Positions 7,559 to 61,459 of a stretch of DNA of 64,000 nt are shown piece by piece. The notes under the pieces were generated by a model. The model searched no databases. It saw nothing but the letters and a program-made list of their open reading frames with translations, and was not told the DNA's origin. A program made the position numbers and the translations under genes. Each line of letters opens with the position of its first letter. Position 1 is the stretch's first letter. The DNA lies in the NCBI GenBank assembly GCA_017822615.1, contig GCA_017822615.1_4530.1. One strand, written 5' to 3'. The stretch is from a phage.

Positions 7559-7777
7559 ATGCGTAAATTAGTGAGCTTTAATGTTTCAATTCTTGTTGAT
7601 GAACAAAATGAAGATGTTATTAAAGGTCTTGCAAATAAGATTGCAGGCGGAATGACGGAAGCTGAAGTGTGGGAAGAATGTGCTCGACTTTATGAGGAAG
7701 GTGTTATTGAGGTCTTGGGGGATGAGATTAATATGGACGATGTTGTAAAAGTAACTGTGGAGCGTATCCATGACTAA
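7559..7777 (+). CDS. hypothetical protein
   Basis: 72-aa ORF with RBS AAGGAG. Confidence 0.55.
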   Translation: MRKLVSFNVSILVDEQNEDVIKGLANKIAGGMTEAEVWEECARLYEEGVIEVLGDEINMDDVVKVTVERIHD

Positions 7778-8363
7778 ATCAAAACAAATCAATATTGCCA
7801 AAGAAATTCTTACCGTATTAAAGATTGCTGATCCTAATTCTGTCTTGGCTGGCGGCGCTGTTCGTGATTGGCGTATTCTTGATATTGCTGGACGTGATCT
7901 GGATTTTTACACGTCTCTTCCTGCACATCGATCAGAAGAGCAAATACAAGAATTGATTGCATCTGCTTTGATGGGAACTAATGTTCGTAAATTAGGAAAC
8001 AAAGAAGCTTCGGATAACTACGAGGGTGTTACTGGTCTTAAACACGTTTTTGAGTTTGAACGTGATGGTCAGCTTTGCAACCTTATGATTATGGAACCAA
8101 GCGTAATGACAACCTTTCTAAATGAGTTTGATCTGTCCATCTGCCAGGCTGCATTTGATGGGAAGGATTGTTATTACTCTAAAGATTTTGAAACAACTTT
8201 GGAAACAGGGATCTGCTTCTTGCACAAAGATGTTAGAGAAGATGCCAAACACGTTATTAAAATTGCTACACGTTTCCCATATCTTCGTTTTGTGAAAGAG
8301 GTTAAGGTTCCACGTCCACCTCAAGTAGATACCAGATTGGAAGAAGATGATATTCCTTGGTAA
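7770..8363 (+). CDS. nucleotidyltransferase, CCA-adding enzyme / poly(A) polymerase head-domain-like
   Basis: LAGGAVRDWRILDIAGRDLDFY matches the class II tRNA nucleotidyltransferase signature (GGAVRD...DxD); C-terminus EEDDIPW. Confidence 0.6.
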   Translation: MTKSKQINIAKEILTVLKIADPNSVLAGGAVRDWRILDIAGRDLDFYTSLPAHRSEEQIQELIASALMGTNVRKLGNKEASDNYEGVTGLKHVFEFERDGQLCNLMIMEPSVMTTFLNEFDLSICQAAFDGKDCYYSKDFETTLETGICFLHKDVREDAKHVIKIATRFPYLRFVKEVKVPRPPQVDTRLEEDDIPW

Positions 8364-50185: not shown

Positions 50186-50273
50186 TGGTGGTGAGTGATG
50201 GAGTCGAACCACCCGAATCGCAATGATAACAGATTTACAGTCTGCCCCGCTACCCCTACGGAATTAACTCACC
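50186..50273 (-). tRNA. tRNA-Tyr(GTA): tRNA-Tyr (GTA), type II, CCA encoded
   Basis: Perfect acceptor stem, anticodon arm GCAGA-CTGTAAA-TCTGT, long variable arm. Confidence 0.65.
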
Positions 50274-54726: not shown

Positions 54727-55071
54727 ATGAAAGTTTGGATAGATGATATGCGGAACCCAGCCGACTATGGACAGGAGGATGCAATTTGGTTTAAAACGTC
54801 ACAAGAAGCTATGGCCTTTCTCAACGATCCTGCTAAACTGTATCGAAGAGTAACCGAGTGGTCTTTTGACAATGATTTAGGTATGGAGTCAGACCAAGAT
54901 GGGTATGATGTTTTCCTGTACCTGGAAGAACTTCTGGCGTTTGGTAAACCTTGCTTTGGTTCACCCACCATTTTCGTGCATACTTCTAATCCCGCCGCTG
55001 GGGATAAATTCATGCTTGCAAAAGAATCCATGCTGCGTTATGGTATTAAAATGATTCGTGTGCACTACTAA
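54727..55071 (+). CDS. hypothetical protein
   Basis: 114 aa; RBS AAGGAGG. Confidence 0.55.
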   Translation: MKVWIDDMRNPADYGQEDAIWFKTSQEAMAFLNDPAKLYRRVTEWSFDNDLGMESDQDGYDVFLYLEELLAFGKPCFGSPTIFVHTSNPAAGDKFMLAKESMLRYGIKMIRVHY

Positions 55072-55080
55072 GGAGAGAAC

Positions 55081-55224
55081 ATGCATCATTCGGTTTGGTC
55101 GGAACAAGAAGAGGACGAAGGTTACTTTATCTACCGAGAAGAAGAGGATTGGCCCGACACAAGTAATGATCTTTTACTTCCAGACGCTAGTTTTTTCGAG
55201 GATAACTTAAGAGAGGAGGATTAG
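55081..55224 (+). CDS. small highly acidic protein (47 aa), not in ORF track
   Basis: RBS AAGGAGAG; product MHHSVWSEQEEDEGYFIYREEEDWPDTSNDLLLPDASFFEDNLREED. Confidence 0.4.
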   Translation: MHHSVWSEQEEDEGYFIYREEEDWPDTSNDLLLPDASFFEDNLREED

Positions 55225-55230
55225 GAAACA

Positions 55231-55587
55231 ATGAGTGGTATTGAAAACAATATTTGTTACCAACCTCTTACCTGGATGGGTGAGGGTCATTATGCGCAAC
55301 GTGTTATCGTCTGTGCTGCAAATAAGTATATTTTGAATAATGGTGAAGAGTTAATTATTCCTTGTGTTCGACATGCAAATCCTGTACTATATGCACAGTT
55401 AAACGTGTTGAAAGAAGCAGGTGTAATCAACAAAACTTTGTGCACACCAGATAATCAAGGCTTTATCGATCAGTATTACAATTGGTGGAGTCGTGCGGAT
55501 GCTTACATCATCGCGGAAAATGCTGACCAGATCGACCATGAGCGTAATGGTCACGACCATGAATTATTTAGCGAGGGATTATACTAA
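55231..55587 (+). CDS. hypothetical protein
   Basis: 118 aa; RBS GAGGAGG. Confidence 0.55.
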   Translation: MSGIENNICYQPLTWMGEGHYAQRVIVCAANKYILNNGEELIIPCVRHANPVLYAQLNVLKEAGVINKTLCTPDNQGFIDQYYNWWSRADAYIIAENADQIDHERNGHDHELFSEGLY

Positions 55588-56138
55588 TGTTTATTACAAG
55601 TGATTTGCATTTTATGCACAAACGTATACGAGAGTTTGCTCCTGAATATCGACCGTGGGAAGATATGGACCACATGACAGAAGCACTGATCGAAGCATGG
55701 AATAAATGTGCTACTACTCCTGGTGTTAAGATGTGGCATTTGGGCGACTTCTGTTTCGGAACTGAAGAAGATACCCGTAAAATTGCTTCTCGTCTCCAAG
55801 GAGATATCACCTACTGTGTTGGGAACCATGACTACAGCAAACACCGAGAAGTGCTTGCAGAGTATGGTGAAGTGGTGTATTATGACGAAGTGAAATATCA
55901 GAAGCTGTTCTTCGTCTTAAGTCATTACCCTATGGCCTCCTGGAATAAACAAGGTCGTGGATCAATCATGCTACACGGGCATTCCCACGGATCTTTCCCT
56001 GATGAAGCTTATGGTAAAATGTTAGATGTGGGTTGGGATGCACATGGAAAAATCTTGCATTTTGATGAGATAATTTCTATGATGAGTAAACGAGATATCG
56101 TGACTGTAGACCATCACAAAATAATCAAAGGAGAGTAA
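55587..56138 (+). CDS. calcineurin-like metallophosphoesterase (putative RNA 3'-end healing phosphatase)
   Basis: Motifs SDLHFMH, HLGDFCFG, CVGNHD, HGHSH; immediately upstream of the RNA ligase and kinase genes. Confidence 0.7.
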   Translation: MFITSDLHFMHKRIREFAPEYRPWEDMDHMTEALIEAWNKCATTPGVKMWHLGDFCFGTEEDTRKIASRLQGDITYCVGNHDYSKHREVLAEYGEVVYYDEVKYQKLFFVLSHYPMASWNKQGRGSIMLHGHSHGSFPDEAYGKMLDVGWDAHGKILHFDEIISMMSKRDIVTVDHHKIIKGE

Positions 56139-56139
56139 T

Positions 56140-57072
56140 GTGGCTAAATTTAACTGCGACGATTTGGTTGAAAAAGGTTTAGTTCATAAGAAAACATATA
56201 AAGAAGGAGAGTATTCTGGTCTATCTGTTCTTAAGTATAAGAACAAAGTTTTCTGGGATAACTTATGGGGCATTGATTCTCGTCTTCTGGAATGTCGCGG
56301 AATCGTTGTTGACGCTGATGACAATGTTGTTATTTGGCCTTTCACTAAGATTTTTAATCATTTTGAGAATGGCACAGATCTACCAGCGGATGAACTTGTA
56401 GATGTGGTTCGTAAAGTAAATGGTTTTATGGCCTCTGTGGGTGTATATAAAGGTCAACTTATTGTATCGACAACAGGAAGCCTTGAATCAGATTTTGCAA
56501 GTATTGCAAAGAATCATATTGTTTCAGAGTGTGATGACATAGAACATTTCATCAAATGGACAGAGAGTGCAAAAGCAACTTTCCTTTTTGAAATCTGTGA
56601 TCCTTCTGATCCGCATATTGTCGAAGAAGAACCAGGTGCATACTTAATTGGTGCCAGAATTCAAAACCCTGATGGGACAAGTTTTATGTTACCTGAAGGT
56701 GCTCTTGATGGAATTGCTTCTGTCACCAAATTTAAGCGTCCTGAAGTTTATCCAATGGTTAAGTTTTCAGATGTTGTTGAAATGTCTAAACATTGTAAAC
56801 ACGAAGGGTTTGTAGTTCGTGAAACAAACTATCCGTTCAACTTACTTTTAAAAATTAAATCACCACACTATCTTACTAAGAAGTTTCTTATGCGCGGTGG
56901 AGATAAAAAGTGGGATCTGATTTGGGATAATCCGAAAAATGCCAAACAAATTGTTGACGAAGAATATTACGCTTTGTTAGAATGGATTCGAAATAATTTT
57001 ACGAAGACTCAATGGGCTGCTTTAAATCAGCAAGAGCGACGTGAAAAAATCGAAAACTTCTTTGGAGGATAA
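56140..57072 (+). CDS. ATP-dependent RNA ligase
   Basis: Nucleotidyltransferase motif I KVNG, motif IV EGFVV, motif V LLKIK; 310 aa; flanked by end-healing enzymes. Confidence 0.65.
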   Translation: MAKFNCDDLVEKGLVHKKTYKEGEYSGLSVLKYKNKVFWDNLWGIDSRLLECRGIVVDADDNVVIWPFTKIFNHFENGTDLPADELVDVVRKVNGFMASVGVYKGQLIVSTTGSLESDFASIAKNHIVSECDDIEHFIKWTESAKATFLFEICDPSDPHIVEEEPGAYLIGARIQNPDGTSFMLPEGALDGIASVTKFKRPEVYPMVKFSDVVEMSKHCKHEGFVVRETNYPFNLLLKIKSPHYLTKKFLMRGGDKKWDLIWDNPKNAKQIVDEEYYALLEWIRNNFTKTQWAALNQQERREKIENFFGG

Positions 57073-57477
57073 ATGAAACAACTTATCATTTTACGTGGCG
57101 TTTCAGGTGCTGGTAAATCTACGGTAGCAGAAATTATTTCTGAAGGTTATTGGCCTATCTGTGAGGCAGATCAATATCATTACACAGAGAGTGGTGTTTA
57201 CGATTGGAAGCCAGAAAATGTAGGTAAAGCACACGCATGGTGTCAGGGTATTGTTCGTGATGCTATGGCATCTAATCTTAACAAGATTATTGTTTCTAAT
57301 ACTTCAACCACAGAGAAAGAACTTAAACCTTATCTAGCTCTTGCTGAAGAGTTTGGTTATCAAGTTATCTCTTTAATTGTTGAAAATAGGCACGGTAATG
57401 ATTCAATTCACGAGGTTCCACAATATATCCGTGATCAGCAAGAGAAACGTCTTCGTGGTTCACTTAAACTTCAATAA
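57073..57477 (+). CDS. polynucleotide 5'-kinase (T4 Pnk kinase-domain-like)
   Basis: Walker A GVSGAGKST in IILRGVSGAGKSTVA, close to the T4 Pnk N-terminus; IIVSNT segment; 134 aa. Confidence 0.65.
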   Translation: MKQLIILRGVSGAGKSTVAEIISEGYWPICEADQYHYTESGVYDWKPENVGKAHAWCQGIVRDAMASNLNKIIVSNTSTTEKELKPYLALAEEFGYQVISLIVENRHGNDSIHEVPQYIRDQQEKRLRGSLKLQ

Positions 57478-57486
57478 GGAGAAATA

Positions 57487-57813
57487 ATGCAGATTTATAC
57501 AGATGATCGTAAATATGAGACAATTTTAGATGAAGATACTGGACGAATTACCGTTCTCCGTCACGGTGAAGAGTGGCGTGATGAAACGGGAGACAATTAT
57601 ATCTTGTCTCTGATTCATCTTATTGAACAAATGCGTGATGATTACGCTGAACTGCATTATGAAAATGAGGCTAATAAAGTAAAATTTGAAAATGAATTAG
57701 AAGAGAAAGAATCCGAAATGGTATATCTAAAAGAAGAGATCTCCCGTTTGGAGGAAGAGATTGATGCTCTTCAAGAAGAGATTTACGAACTCAACAACGA
57801 ACTGAACGCTTAA
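57487..57813 (+). CDS. hypothetical coiled-coil protein
   Basis: 108 aa; C-terminal heptad-rich segment. Confidence 0.5.
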   Translation: MQIYTDDRKYETILDEDTGRITVLRHGEEWRDETGDNYILSLIHLIEQMRDDYAELHYENEANKVKFENELEEKESEMVYLKEEISRLEEEIDALQEEIYELNNELNA

Positions 57814-57822
57814 GGAGGGATT

Positions 57823-58011
57823 ATGAAAAAAGATATCGTTGTTGGTTGGCTGACTTGCCCTTGTGGTAGTAATGACATAACTGTAAACACAGAGGGTGAT
57901 AAAAATTATTTATTCTACGGGGATAAAATCACTTGCAATACCTGCGGACGTGTTGGTATTATAGAAACCGATGATTGTTGTGCTTTTGAATCTTGGGATG
58001 AAGAAGAATGA
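57823..58011 (+). CDS. small zinc-ribbon protein
   Basis: 62 aa; CPCG...CNTCG plus a DDCC tail. Confidence 0.5.
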   Translation: MKKDIVVGWLTCPCGSNDITVNTEGDKNYLFYGDKITCNTCGRVGIIETDDCCAFESWDEEE

Positions 58012-58229
58012 GTACTGCATTTTATGTTCGTAGCGGAGACGAGGATTTTCTAGCTACTTTTGATGACGGTGATCTTGAAGATATGTATGAAGATATGCTT
58101 GACTATGCCAAAGGGCAAGGTTTCACAAGCATTGATTATATGTTGGCAACATCTACAACGTTACTCGACGCAGATTTGGATGAAGTGTGTAACAGATTGA
58201 AAATTTCAGTTTTTAAATGGGAGGACTAA
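58008..58229 (+). CDS. small acidic protein
   Basis: 73 aa, Asp/Glu-rich. Confidence 0.45.
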   Translation: MSTAFYVRSGDEDFLATFDDGDLEDMYEDMLDYAKGQGFTSIDYMLATSTTLLDADLDEVCNRLKISVFKWED

Positions 58230-59344
58230 TGCAACAAACAAATCAAACGCTGTATGGTAAAGATTCAAAAGGAAAACTTAAACAGTGGACAGTATATACA
58301 GATGGTGCAGTTGTTACTGTAGCTCATGGAAGAGTAGGTGGAAAGATCACAGAAAAATCTTATACAGCAGAAGCAAAAAACATTGGTCGTTCCAATGAAA
58401 CAACACCGGAAGAACAAGCTGAACTTGAAGCTTTTGCCAAATGGACAAAACAGTTAAAGAATGGCTATTATAAAACAAAAGAAGAAGCTGAAAACCATGT
58501 TCCTTCCACACCAATGAAATGCCAGGATTATAAAGATTATCCTGAAAGGGTTGTGTTCCCTGGTTATGCACAATACAAACTGAACGGGTTACGTTCTATG
58601 ATTAACATGAAAGGGGAGTGTTTATCAAAAGCTGGGGAAGTGTATAACCTGCCACCTCATTGGAAAGGTATTCCAAACTTTATTAGTGAAGTTGTTGGTC
58701 ATCCTCTTGATGGTGAAGTGTTTGCTGGGTTAGGTGTCCTTAGTCTGCAACAAATTAACAGTGCTTGGAAGAAGCATAATGCAAATACACCTTTGCTGAA
58801 TTATTACGTATACGATATTCCAGTTCCAGGTCTACCGTTTGAAAAACGTGTTGATGCTCTTGCTGCTCTTAAGGCAGTAGTTGAAGATTATGGTCTTGAC
58901 GAGCTTATTTGTGTAGTTCATACAGAGTATATTGAAAACCAAGAGCGGTTTGACGCTTTCTATGAAAAAGCTTTACTTGAGAAAGCTGAAGGTGTAGTAT
59001 ATCGTAATGCTCACGGAGTTTACGAATTTGATAAACGTTCTTATGACGTTATTAAACGTAAGCCTCGCCACACCCTTGAAGTTAAAGTAACAAATTCAAA
59101 AAGCGATAAAAATGGCGATGGAGTGTTGACAGGTGAGATGGAAAATGGTAAAGTAGTCGAATTCTTAATGCGTAAAGATGCTCATGAGACTATCAATTAT
59201 CGTAAAGCAGAGAATGCTTCTACCTTGATTAATCAGTTCGTTGAAATAGAGTATGAAGAATTTTCAGATGAAGGTATTCCAACAAAACCTGTTGGTGTTC
59301 GTATTCGAGAAATGATCCCAGGCACTTGGGAACCAGCAGAGTAA
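58229..59344 (+). CDS. ATP-dependent DNA ligase
   Basis: Start refined to ATG 58229 after GGAGG; motif I KLNGLR, motif IV EGVVYR, motif V VIKRK. Confidence 0.75.
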   Translation: MQQTNQTLYGKDSKGKLKQWTVYTDGAVVTVAHGRVGGKITEKSYTAEAKNIGRSNETTPEEQAELEAFAKWTKQLKNGYYKTKEEAENHVPSTPMKCQDYKDYPERVVFPGYAQYKLNGLRSMINMKGECLSKAGEVYNLPPHWKGIPNFISEVVGHPLDGEVFAGLGVLSLQQINSAWKKHNANTPLLNYYVYDIPVPGLPFEKRVDALAALKAVVEDYGLDELICVVHTEYIENQERFDAFYEKALLEKAEGVVYRNAHGVYEFDKRSYDVIKRKPRHTLEVKVTNSKSDKNGDGVLTGEMENGKVVEFLMRKDAHETINYRKAENASTLINQFVEIEYEEFSDEGIPTKPVGVRIREMIPGTWEPAE

Positions 59345-59736: not shown

Positions 59737-60462
59737 ATGATCGAGAATTTTTTTAAAGATATTAAGTTCGATACTGAATTTTTCAAAAATGCAGCGAAGC
59801 ACGTGATTGATTGGAATGCTAAAGCACGAGGTGGTGAACAACCTGAATTCACTCAAGAGCTATTTATGTCCCAAATCGGATTCGTTCGTGAAGAGCTTAA
59901 AGAGTATGAAACAGCCGCGAAAGTAAACGATCATGTAGAACTCTTGGATGCAGCAGCGGATATTTTTGTAGTATCCAGTTATCTGACCTACATGTTCTTT
60001 GGTGAAGAACATACGATGAATTTCTTGGACTATGCTGTAGGCGATGTTTTTACTCCAACTGTGTATACTGATTTTGATGCTTTGGAACAAACATTTACAG
60101 AGCCAGTTCAAATGGCACTAATGGCTGCTGGTATTATGCGTATGTCTCGTGACACTCTAATCCGTTCAAAATATCCAGAAAAGAAAGTTATTAAAGAGGT
60201 ATTGAAAAGTAATGATTCCAAGTATCCAACTAAACAACAGTTGCTGAAAACTTGGAAAACTTCGGATATCGATTCAGCCATTGCACAAGAATGCGCTGCA
60301 ATTGAAGAACGAAATGCCAATCGTCCAGAAGGGGCATACACTGGTGTTCATGCTGTTTATAATGAAAAACAGAAAGTGTATGTGTTCTTTGATGATAAAG
60401 GTAAGATCATGAAACCATCGACCTTTGTCAAACCTAATATTGCAGGTATTATTAATAAGTAA
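59737..60462 (+). CDS. MazG-like nucleotide pyrophosphohydrolase domain protein
   Basis: EELKEYE ... ELLDAAADIF matches the MazG E-E-x2-E / E-x2-D metal-binding helices; 241 aa. Confidence 0.45.
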   Translation: MIENFFKDIKFDTEFFKNAAKHVIDWNAKARGGEQPEFTQELFMSQIGFVREELKEYETAAKVNDHVELLDAAADIFVVSSYLTYMFFGEEHTMNFLDYAVGDVFTPTVYTDFDALEQTFTEPVQMALMAAGIMRMSRDTLIRSKYPEKKVIKEVLKSNDSKYPTKQQLLKTWKTSDIDSAIAQECAAIEERNANRPEGAYTGVHAVYNEKQKVYVFFDDKGKIMKPSTFVKPNIAGIINK

Positions 60463-61430: not shown

Positions 61431-61459
61431 GCCTACCTACTTAATGAGGTAGGCTTTTT
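61431..61459 (+). terminator. rho-independent terminator overlapping the promoter output
   Basis: gcctacct-acttaatg-aggtaggc 8-bp stem followed by TTTTT. Confidence 0.55.

Follow-up and report, generated by a model that had tools for sequence, protein, structure and literature searches.

A predicted RNA end-healing and sealing cassette encoded by three coupled genes of a Phapecoctavirus genome

A 64,000-nucleotide stretch of phage DNA (contig GCA_017822615.1_4530.1 of GenBank assembly GCA_017822615.1, hereafter the window) carries three consecutive genes on its + strand, at 55587-57477, that are predicted to encode a metallophosphoesterase, an RNA ligase, and a polynucleotide kinase-like protein. 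We propose, with a probability of roughly 0.7, that this cassette is a T4-like pathway of RNA end healing and sealing that is distributed over separate small proteins. A first-pass annotation had placed the three open reading frames (ORFs) here and had read them as a calcineurin-type phosphoesterase, a ligase, and a Pnk-like kinase; the coordinates proved exact, and both profile searches (Pfam and PHROG) and active-site residues agree with the three assignments. The enzymology of the trio can be predicted because the proteins belong to known families and their active sites are intact, and joint action of the three proteins is supported by gene linkage and by a cyanobacterial fusion protein. 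RNA, and specifically tRNA, would be the substrate, and the cassette may serve as a counter-defence against host nucleases, because T4 Pnkp and Rnl1 offer an analogy in their action against PrrC and because 11 phage tRNA genes lie nearby.

Defences that cleave tRNA are common and include PrrC, RloC, PARIS, retron-linked nucleases, Cas13, and Cas12a3. To our knowledge, T4 Pnkp and Rnl1 are the only phage system for which repair of cleaved tRNA has been shown by experiment. The cassette described here would represent a compact three-protein alternative to T4 repair that occurs in many phage groups and has a fusion form in cyanobacteria. The module also bears on the function of the aq_1665/COG4186 phosphoesterases, on a minimal Pnk-type kinase, and on the prediction made for the cyclic-phosphate-processing receiver (cREC) domain.

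The 5.2-kb stretch around the cassette is 99.4% identical to the Escherichia phages ESCO13, ESCO5, REC, and Schickermooser. Relatives of the ESCO13 type are myophages of ~150 kb that belong to the genus Phapecoctavirus, subfamily Stephanstirmvirinae, and the window is itself a Phapecoctavirus (phAPEC8/ESCO13-like coliphage). Both the annotation of the trio and an RNA-repair reading of the neighbourhood are already public in GenBank records and in Iyer et al. 2021/2022; the Schickermooser record (MK373788) labels the three genes "putative phosphoesterase or phosphohydrolase", "putative RNA ligase", and "putative polynucleotide kinase". The result for the window is therefore mostly confirmatory, as the genes had been annotated in this way and the neighbourhood had been discussed in print. 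The quantitative linkage of the trio, the cyanobacterial fusion, the position of the metallophosphoesterase in an uncharacterised branch, and the absence of Sir2 from the window are new here. The genes of the cassette are as follows.

55587..56138, +: binuclear (calcineurin-like) metallophosphoesterase (MPE), 183 amino acids (aa); PF00149, phrog_547
56140..57072, +: predicted Rnl1-family ATP-dependent RNA ligase (LIG), 310 aa, GTG start; PF09511, phrog_562
57073..57477, +: stand-alone P-loop polynucleotide 5'-kinase-like protein (KIN), 134 aa; AAA_33 (PF13671), phrog_505

The translational coupling that had been suggested for the trio is borne out by the junctions, which measure 0-1 nt and have their Shine-Dalgarno sequences inside the preceding genes. 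More specifically, the MPE stop codon TAA (56136-56138) is followed by a single base and then by the ligase GTG at 56140, with GGAG ~6 nt before the GTG, and the kinase ATG at 57073 directly abuts the ligase TAA (57070-57072).

The three proteins and their predicted chemistry

The ligase is predicted to be an RNA ligase of the Rnl1 clade, and a database search returned 1767 relatives of ~300 aa each. It matches PF09511 (RNA_lig_T4_1) with an E value of 2.9e-15 (57.1 bits, gathering cutoff 28.3) and phrog_562 with an E value of 8.5e-70. The motifs KVNG, EGFVV, and LLKIK, from which the first-pass annotation had recognized a nucleotidyltransferase, are present, and the key residues are invariant in 28 homologues, namely K92, N94, and G95 (motif I), E151 (motif III), E222 and G223 (motif IV), and K238 and K240 (motif V). 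K92 is the predicted site of adenylylation. A single-sequence phmmer search with the ligase found no match in the PDB and a family profile was required; this profile reaches T4 Rnl1 (2c5u, E 1.7e-10) and no other ligase in the PDB, and no Trl1 ligase was matched at E <= 10. When aligned with T4 RnlA by hhalign (probability 96.8%, E 2e-10, residues 47-263 against 48-266), the ligase places R53, K70, F72, K92, and G95 opposite R54, K75, F77, K99, and G102 of T4 Rnl1, and E151, E222, G223, K238, and K240 opposite E159, E227, G228, K240, and K242. Ten of the 11 residues that we take to be essential in T4 Rnl1 (for R54, K75, F77, and K119 from Shuman-lab mutagenesis) are thus identical in the phage enzyme. 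A structural model made with AlphaFold2 (AF2; pLDDT 90.7) has as its top Foldseek matches in the PDB the ligase domains of fungal Trl1 together with T4 Rnl1 (E ~1e-13), followed by weaker matches to archaeal Rnl3, T4 Rnl2, Naegleria Rnl5, and DNA ligases; no Pnkp ligase structure was found in the top 50.

The kinase matches PF13671 (AAA_33; E 3.5e-10) and the polynucleotide kinase family phrog_505 (E 1.2e-7). With 33 family members from related loci combined into a profile, the PDB structure matched best is T4 Pnk (1ly1/1ltq), over the full length of the protein (E 8.5e-9, positions 2-128 against 3-145), and the next matches are Capnocytophaga Pnkp1, Clostridium thermocellum Pnk, PSTK, and mammalian PNKP. 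A resemblance to T4 Pnk had previously been claimed for the N-terminus and reaches beyond it: hhalign against T4 PseT (probability 98.5%, E 2.9e-15) pairs residues 1-133 with 1-149, and the latter are the whole T4 kinase domain. The P-loop residues G14 and K15 are invariant in the 33 sequences, as is D33, and K15, S16, and D33 align with T4 Pnk K15, S16, and D35. In T4 Pnk, D35 is the general base. The protein has 134 aa and aligns to PseT 1-149 only, with no C-terminal HAD (DxDxT) 3'-phosphatase domain. It represents a divergent, minimal Pnk-type branch that does without the phosphatase domain.

The third protein, the MPE, matches PF00149 (Metallophos; E 3.1e-5, 24.9 bits, gathering cutoff 21.5) and phrog_547, "phosphoesterase" (E 6.5e-56). 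The motifs DxH, GD, GNH(D/E), H, and GHxH are all present, and the 32 homologues compared show no variation at D6, H8, G53, D54, G79, N80, H81, H113, G131, H132, or H134. The sole strong PDB match of the family profile is Aquifex aq_1665 (1xm7, E 6.7e-23). With this intact active site, the MPE is a candidate for opening a 2',3'-cyclic phosphate and for removing a 3'-phosphate.

Taken together, these assignments suggest a simple sequence of reactions. Ribonucleases of the host or of a competitor would cut RNA, most plausibly in tRNA anticodon loops, so that one end carries a 2',3'-cyclic phosphate and the other a 5'-OH. The MPE, possibly with help from cREC, would open the cyclic phosphate and remove the phosphate to give a 3'-OH, while the 134-aa kinase would transfer a phosphate from an NTP onto the 5'-OH. 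The Rnl1-type ligase would then adenylylate itself at K92, pass the AMP onto the 5'-phosphate, and join the ends.

It is also conceivable that the ligase is mainly morphogenetic, in the manner of the T4 gp63 tail-fibre attachment activity, or that the cassette heals DNA ends; we regard either as highly improbable. The first of these draws on the name "RNA ligase and tail fiber protein attachment catalyst" used by PHROG and GenBank, which is inherited from T4 gp63. However, the ligase family shows no variation in any nucleotidyl-transfer residue, which speaks for catalysis, and the cassette lies among early or replication-type genes and not among tail genes. For DNA ends, it may be noted that T4 Pnk is active on DNA too and that RdgC and a DNA ligase lie downstream of the cassette in the same strand block. 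Against this, the fold and profile of the cassette ligase point to the Rnl1 clade, which is RNA-specific, DNA ligases match far more weakly, and the phage already possesses a dedicated ATP-dependent DNA ligase (58217-59344), so that the cassette ligase is not the replicative ligase.

Several observations weigh against the proposed RNA repair pathway. In the ligase, the position of T4 Rnl1 K119 is taken by an invariant threonine (T112), and the helical C-terminal domain comprises ~70 aa after motif V, compared with ~120 aa in T4. The C-terminal domain of T4 Rnl1 is thought to confer tRNA specificity, and it is this domain that is shorter here. The score of the ligase against TIGR02308, the NCBIfam equivalog for T4 RnlA, is 23.9 bits with a cutoff of 242.25; because of this score and the shorter C-terminal domain, the ligase is not an orthologue of T4 RnlA. 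In the kinase, the positions of T4 Pnk R38 and R126, which we take to contact acceptor and NTP, are occupied as aligned by H36 and D110. R106 aligns with T4 Pnk R122 and is not conserved across the family. As for the MPE, aq_1665 is a structural-genomics protein without known function, and the family profile found nothing from the Pnkp/lambda branch (4j6o, 1g5b) at E <= 1. The MPE thus falls in the aq_1665/COG4186 branch, outside the Pnkp/lambda-phosphatase branch, and the earlier statement that 3'-healing proceeds as in bacterial Pnkp holds at the level of the superfamily but not of the family. Finally, the literature searched offers neither biochemical nor genetic evidence for any protein in the three families, and a search on Phapecoctavirus and RNA ligase returned no paper; any nuclease that the cassette would counter, and the RNA that it would act on, are putative.

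Linkage of the trio and a cyanobacterial fusion protein

The RNA repair pathway gains support as a joint activity from the conservation of the three genes as neighbours. When IMG/VR was scanned for the pattern of the ligase alignment, 70 loci were returned whose ligases are 30-88% identical, and linkage was counted at the 69 of them in which the ligase ORF is complete, taking a partner to be present if it lay within 6 kb. The MPE was found at 65/69 loci, the kinase at 63/69, and both at 60/69, and tblastn and an unbiased clustering of ORFs agree that these two families adjoin the ligase. The gene order is MPE-LIG-KIN at 33 loci and KIN-LIG-MPE at 25 loci, and the ligase is always central; most of the loci without a partner are cut by the end of a contig. 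The next most common neighbours were DNA ligase (32), NAMPT (29), PRPP-synthetase-like (28), and HD (19) genes, and rarer ones among the 70 loci were Macro (14), dCMP deaminase (13), MazG (13), Sir2 (11), and cREC (10-11). The trio is a real module that is widely conserved across many phage groups.

The ligase family also occurs in bacterial genomes of GTDB, in Leptolyngbyaceae cyanobacteria and in Cardiobacteriaceae. The Cardiobacteriaceae have three separate genes in the order KIN-LIG-MPE. In Leptolyngbya sp. PCC 7375 (locus L091, 4768-6906), a single ORF of 712 aa combines AAA_33, Metallophos, and RNA_lig_T4_1 in this order, and there are ~25 further Leptolyngbyaceae loci. The ligase domain of the fusion protein is 35-39% identical to the phage ligases, and for its kinase and phosphatase domains the best match is C. 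thermocellum Pnkp (4gp6, E 3.5e-11, and 4j6o, E 2.5e-24, respectively). The phosphatase is hence of the Pnkp branch, unlike the phage MPE, and hhalign of the MPE against this Pnkp-type domain gives a probability of 12%. The cyanobacterial fusion is independent support for a partnership of this ligase family with a polynucleotide kinase and a metallophosphoesterase in acting on broken RNA ends. As a side observation, the fusion has a Pnkp-like architecture with a ligase domain of Rnl1 type and not of Rnl4 type. An RtcB ligase is encoded 1.6 kb downstream of the fusion ORF.

These data also bear on the possibility that the three genes are merely neighbours in an island of counter-defence and nucleotide-metabolism genes and share no common substrate. 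The MPE could then act, for example, on immune signals derived from cyclic nucleotides or ADP-ribose, the kinase on a nucleoside or nicotinamide riboside, and the ligase alone. The surroundings of the trio in other phages are indeed rich in Macro, HD, MazG, dCMP deaminase, and nicotinamide adenine dinucleotide (NAD)-salvage genes, the structure closest to the MPE comes from a protein of no known function, and the kinase profile also matches nicotinamide riboside kinase and other small-molecule kinases, although weakly and over the P-loop only. However, no metabolic neighbour reaches more than 32 loci, compared with 65/69 and 63/69 for the two partners, and the linkage of these partners to the ligase survives inversion of the gene order. 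Moreover, the best full-length match of the kinase is T4 Pnk, and the cyanobacterial protein joins a kinase and a metallophosphoesterase to the same ligase family. We therefore consider separate substrates very unlikely.

NAMPT-like and PRPP-synthetase-like genes stand beside the trio in ~28/70 viral loci, where Macro and HD genes are often found as well, and the loci with this pairing include L009, L011, L013-L017, and L022-L032. The window itself carries none of these genes. We presume that the pairing resembles the phage NAD-reconstitution pathway NARP1, which would make those viral regions counter-defence islands.

cREC and other neighbours of the cassette

The remaining features of the locus to which we refer are listed below in order of position.

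54727..55071, +: cREC domain protein, 114 aa; PF20274
55081..55224, +: very acidic ORF of 47 aa between the cREC and Arn.3-like genes, listed for position only
55231..55587, +: T4 Arn.3-family protein, 118 aa; phrog_839, PF26092
57487-58229, +: three small ORFs at the site of Sir2 in relatives
58217-59344: ATP-dependent DNA ligase
59737-60462, +: MazG-like protein, 241 aa

The trio had been described as one healing-and-sealing unit. The linkage at 60/69 loci and the fusion protein favour this description, but it is incomplete in that it missed cREC. We extend it here to a unit that may comprise more than three genes, with cREC upstream and an Arn.3-like gene coupled to the MPE. The cREC protein matches PF20274 (cREC_REC) over profile positions 1-83 of 88 (E 3.9e-17), and its receiver-type residues D6 and D7, D48, N49, and D50, S87, N88, and P89, and K94 are invariant in nine sequences. 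It is probably an accessory healing enzyme, in line with a published prediction. Iyer et al. 2021 (PMC7824862) defined the cREC domain and predicted that it processes cyclic phosphates, with a link to RNA ligases. The orthologous gene lies between ligase and kinase in rV5-like and PVP-SE1-like phages and upstream of the MPE in the window; in Salmonella phage PVP-SE1 the locus reads phosphoesterase, HNH, RNA ligase, cREC, kinase, Sir2, DNA ligase. The cREC protein of the window is 55-62% identical to those of PVP-SE1-like phages (the L007-L011 type, between ligase and kinase) and only 46-48% identical to those of its closest relatives, L005 and L006, which have the gene at the same position as the window. 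This closer kinship to the PVP-SE1-like phages suggests that the cREC gene has undergone mosaic exchange.

The presence of cREC brings in the main rival to the T4-like pathway. Iyer, Burroughs, Aravind et al. 2022 read the sirtuin neighbourhood of such phages as NAD-dependent RNA repair (PMC9503650, section 3.7.3). In a trimmed form of that published proposal, cREC would yield a 2'-phosphate, the ligase would seal 2'-PO4/3'-OH ends as Trl1 does, and a sirtuin or another enzyme, such as the MPE, would remove the 2'-phosphate. The cREC gene is present and is embedded in the module of relatives, PVP-SE1 and ten other loci have a Sir2 gene flanked by those for the kinase and the DNA ligase, and NAMPT (29 loci), PRPP-synthetase-like (28), and Macro (14) genes are frequent neighbours. 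Trl1 ligase domains also fit the ligase model as well as T4 Rnl1 does. However, no homologue of Sir2, Macro, NAMPT, or PRPP-synthetase was found in the 64-kb window (tblastn, E <= 0.01; for Sir2, the protein of viral locus L013 was the query against the whole window), and the ligase profile is drawn to T4 Rnl1 and not to Trl1. Sir2 and cREC do not strictly co-vary, as L013-L015 have Sir2 only and the window, L005, and L006 have cREC only, and the near-universal MPE could by itself yield a 2',3'-diol. On balance we consider this NAD-dependent route unlikely and retain the T4-like pathway as the preferred explanation.

A division of labour between the MPE and cREC may nevertheless be envisaged within that pathway. 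In such a larger unit, cREC would open the 2',3'-cyclic phosphate without a metal and the aq_1665-type MPE would remove the 2'- or 3'-phosphate, replacing the Sir2 step of the rV5-like phages. We put this forward tentatively and hold it to be rather doubtful; if true, two alternative end-healing chemistries would be interchangeable at one orthologous phage locus. The Arn.3-like protein might add to the unit as an additional component that provides specificity or counters nucleases. Its 118-aa ORF overlaps the MPE ATG by 1 nt (TAATG), and the coupling therefore reaches upstream of the MPE. The protein has invariant C-terminal LFSExLY and RH/QGF motifs, and its model (pLDDT 93.7) shows an orphan fold. 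The Arn.3-like gene is probably a passenger and not a component of the module, because it is found beside the ligase in only 3/70 loci.

Among the smaller ORFs, the E/D-rich one of 47 aa (55081-55224) has no family match; it is 80% identical in L006 and is a hypothetical protein in MK373788. The three ORFs at 57487-58229 encode a coiled-coil protein (108 aa), a Cys-rich, zinc-ribbon-like protein (62 aa), and an acidic protein (73 aa), and the PHROG name "hol-like chemotaxis" for the coiled-coil protein looks like a propagated misnomer. The MazG-like protein (59737-60462) matches a pyrophosphohydrolase domain (PRA-PH) at residues 34-85 only, with the other ~150 residues lacking an assignment. 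The ORFs scanned between 52.4 and 63.8 kb contain no methyltransferase domain, Hen1-type ones included, and NCBIfam gave only weak sub-threshold matches. PADLOC gave no meaningful match, and nothing thus suggests that the cassette is itself a defence system. A promoter scan of 51-62 kb was uninformative (37 sites where 33 were expected), and only the terminator at 61431-61454 looks real in that interval.

The tRNA genes lie 4.6 kb upstream of the cassette on the opposite strand. We found 11 in the window, 10 with ARAGORN and one more with Rfam, and the previous count of 14 was too high. The gene found by Rfam and missed by ARAGORN (50189-50273, -) has a long variable arm, encodes its CCA end, and reads GUA in the anticodon loop, which identifies it as tRNA-Tyr. 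The set comprises Met (two genes), Ile, Pro, Gln, Gly, Thr, Asn, Tyr, Ser, and Arg, and no tRNA-Lys is among the 11 genes detected by the two programs. tRNA-Lys is the classic target of PrrC. An ORF at 7770-8363 (+; 197 aa), 47 kb from the cassette, had been called CCA-enzyme-like. The ORF exists and matches a PHROG family named "nucleotidyltransferase" (E 3.3e-63), and by eye a GGAVRD...DLDF motif is reminiscent of the head domains of class II CCA-adding enzymes and poly(A) polymerases; no Pfam, NCBIfam, or PDB sequence match supports the CCA-enzyme reading.

Comparison with known systems

The cassette shares elements with four systems. Fungal and plant Trl1 likewise combine a ligase, a P-loop kinase, and the processing of a cyclic phosphate, and the Trl1 ligase domain is structurally as close to the phage ligase as T4 Rnl1 is. 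However, Trl1 unites ligase, kinase, and 2H cyclic phosphodiesterase in one protein, whereas the cassette proteins are separate, include no 2H domain, and have no sequence-profile match to Trl1. Bacterial Pnkp, as in C. thermocellum and the Pnkp-Hen1 system, has the same combination of a P-loop kinase, a binuclear metallophosphoesterase, and an ATP-dependent RNA ligase. Pnkp is a single polypeptide with Hen1 as its partner, while the cassette consists of three ORFs with a phosphoesterase of another branch and an Rnl1-like ligase.

A genomic counterpart is the neighbourhood of ligase, cREC, kinase, MazG, and calcineurin-like genes in rV5-like phages, which has been described as predicted RNA repair (PMC7824862, PMC9503650). 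The sirtuin neighbourhood of Iyer et al. (their type 2) in rV5-like and Mydo-like phages is the orthologous region and has in common with the window a T4-like ligase, cREC, a nucleotide kinase, a MazG-like pyrophosphatase, and a calcineurin-like phosphoesterase. The 64-kb window differs in that the defining sirtuin is absent, the cREC gene is relocated, and an Arn.3-like gene is inserted.

T4 provides the functional precedent, as Pnkp and Rnl1 reverse the cleavage of tRNA-Lys by PrrC (cited in PMC10264068). The predicted chemistry of the cassette is the same as that of T4 Pnkp (PseT) and RnlA (gp63), comprising 3'-end healing, 5'-phosphorylation, and ATP-dependent sealing. In T4, however, the 3'-phosphatase is an HAD (DxDxT) domain fused to the kinase, and in the cassette this part would fall to a separate metallophosphoesterase. 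The T4 genes rnlA and pseT are likewise near each other, ~1.4 kb apart and beside dCMP deaminase. The three genes of the cassette are translationally coupled. Finally, T4 RnlA has 374 aa compared with 310 aa in the cassette ligase, and the phage locus adds a cREC gene.

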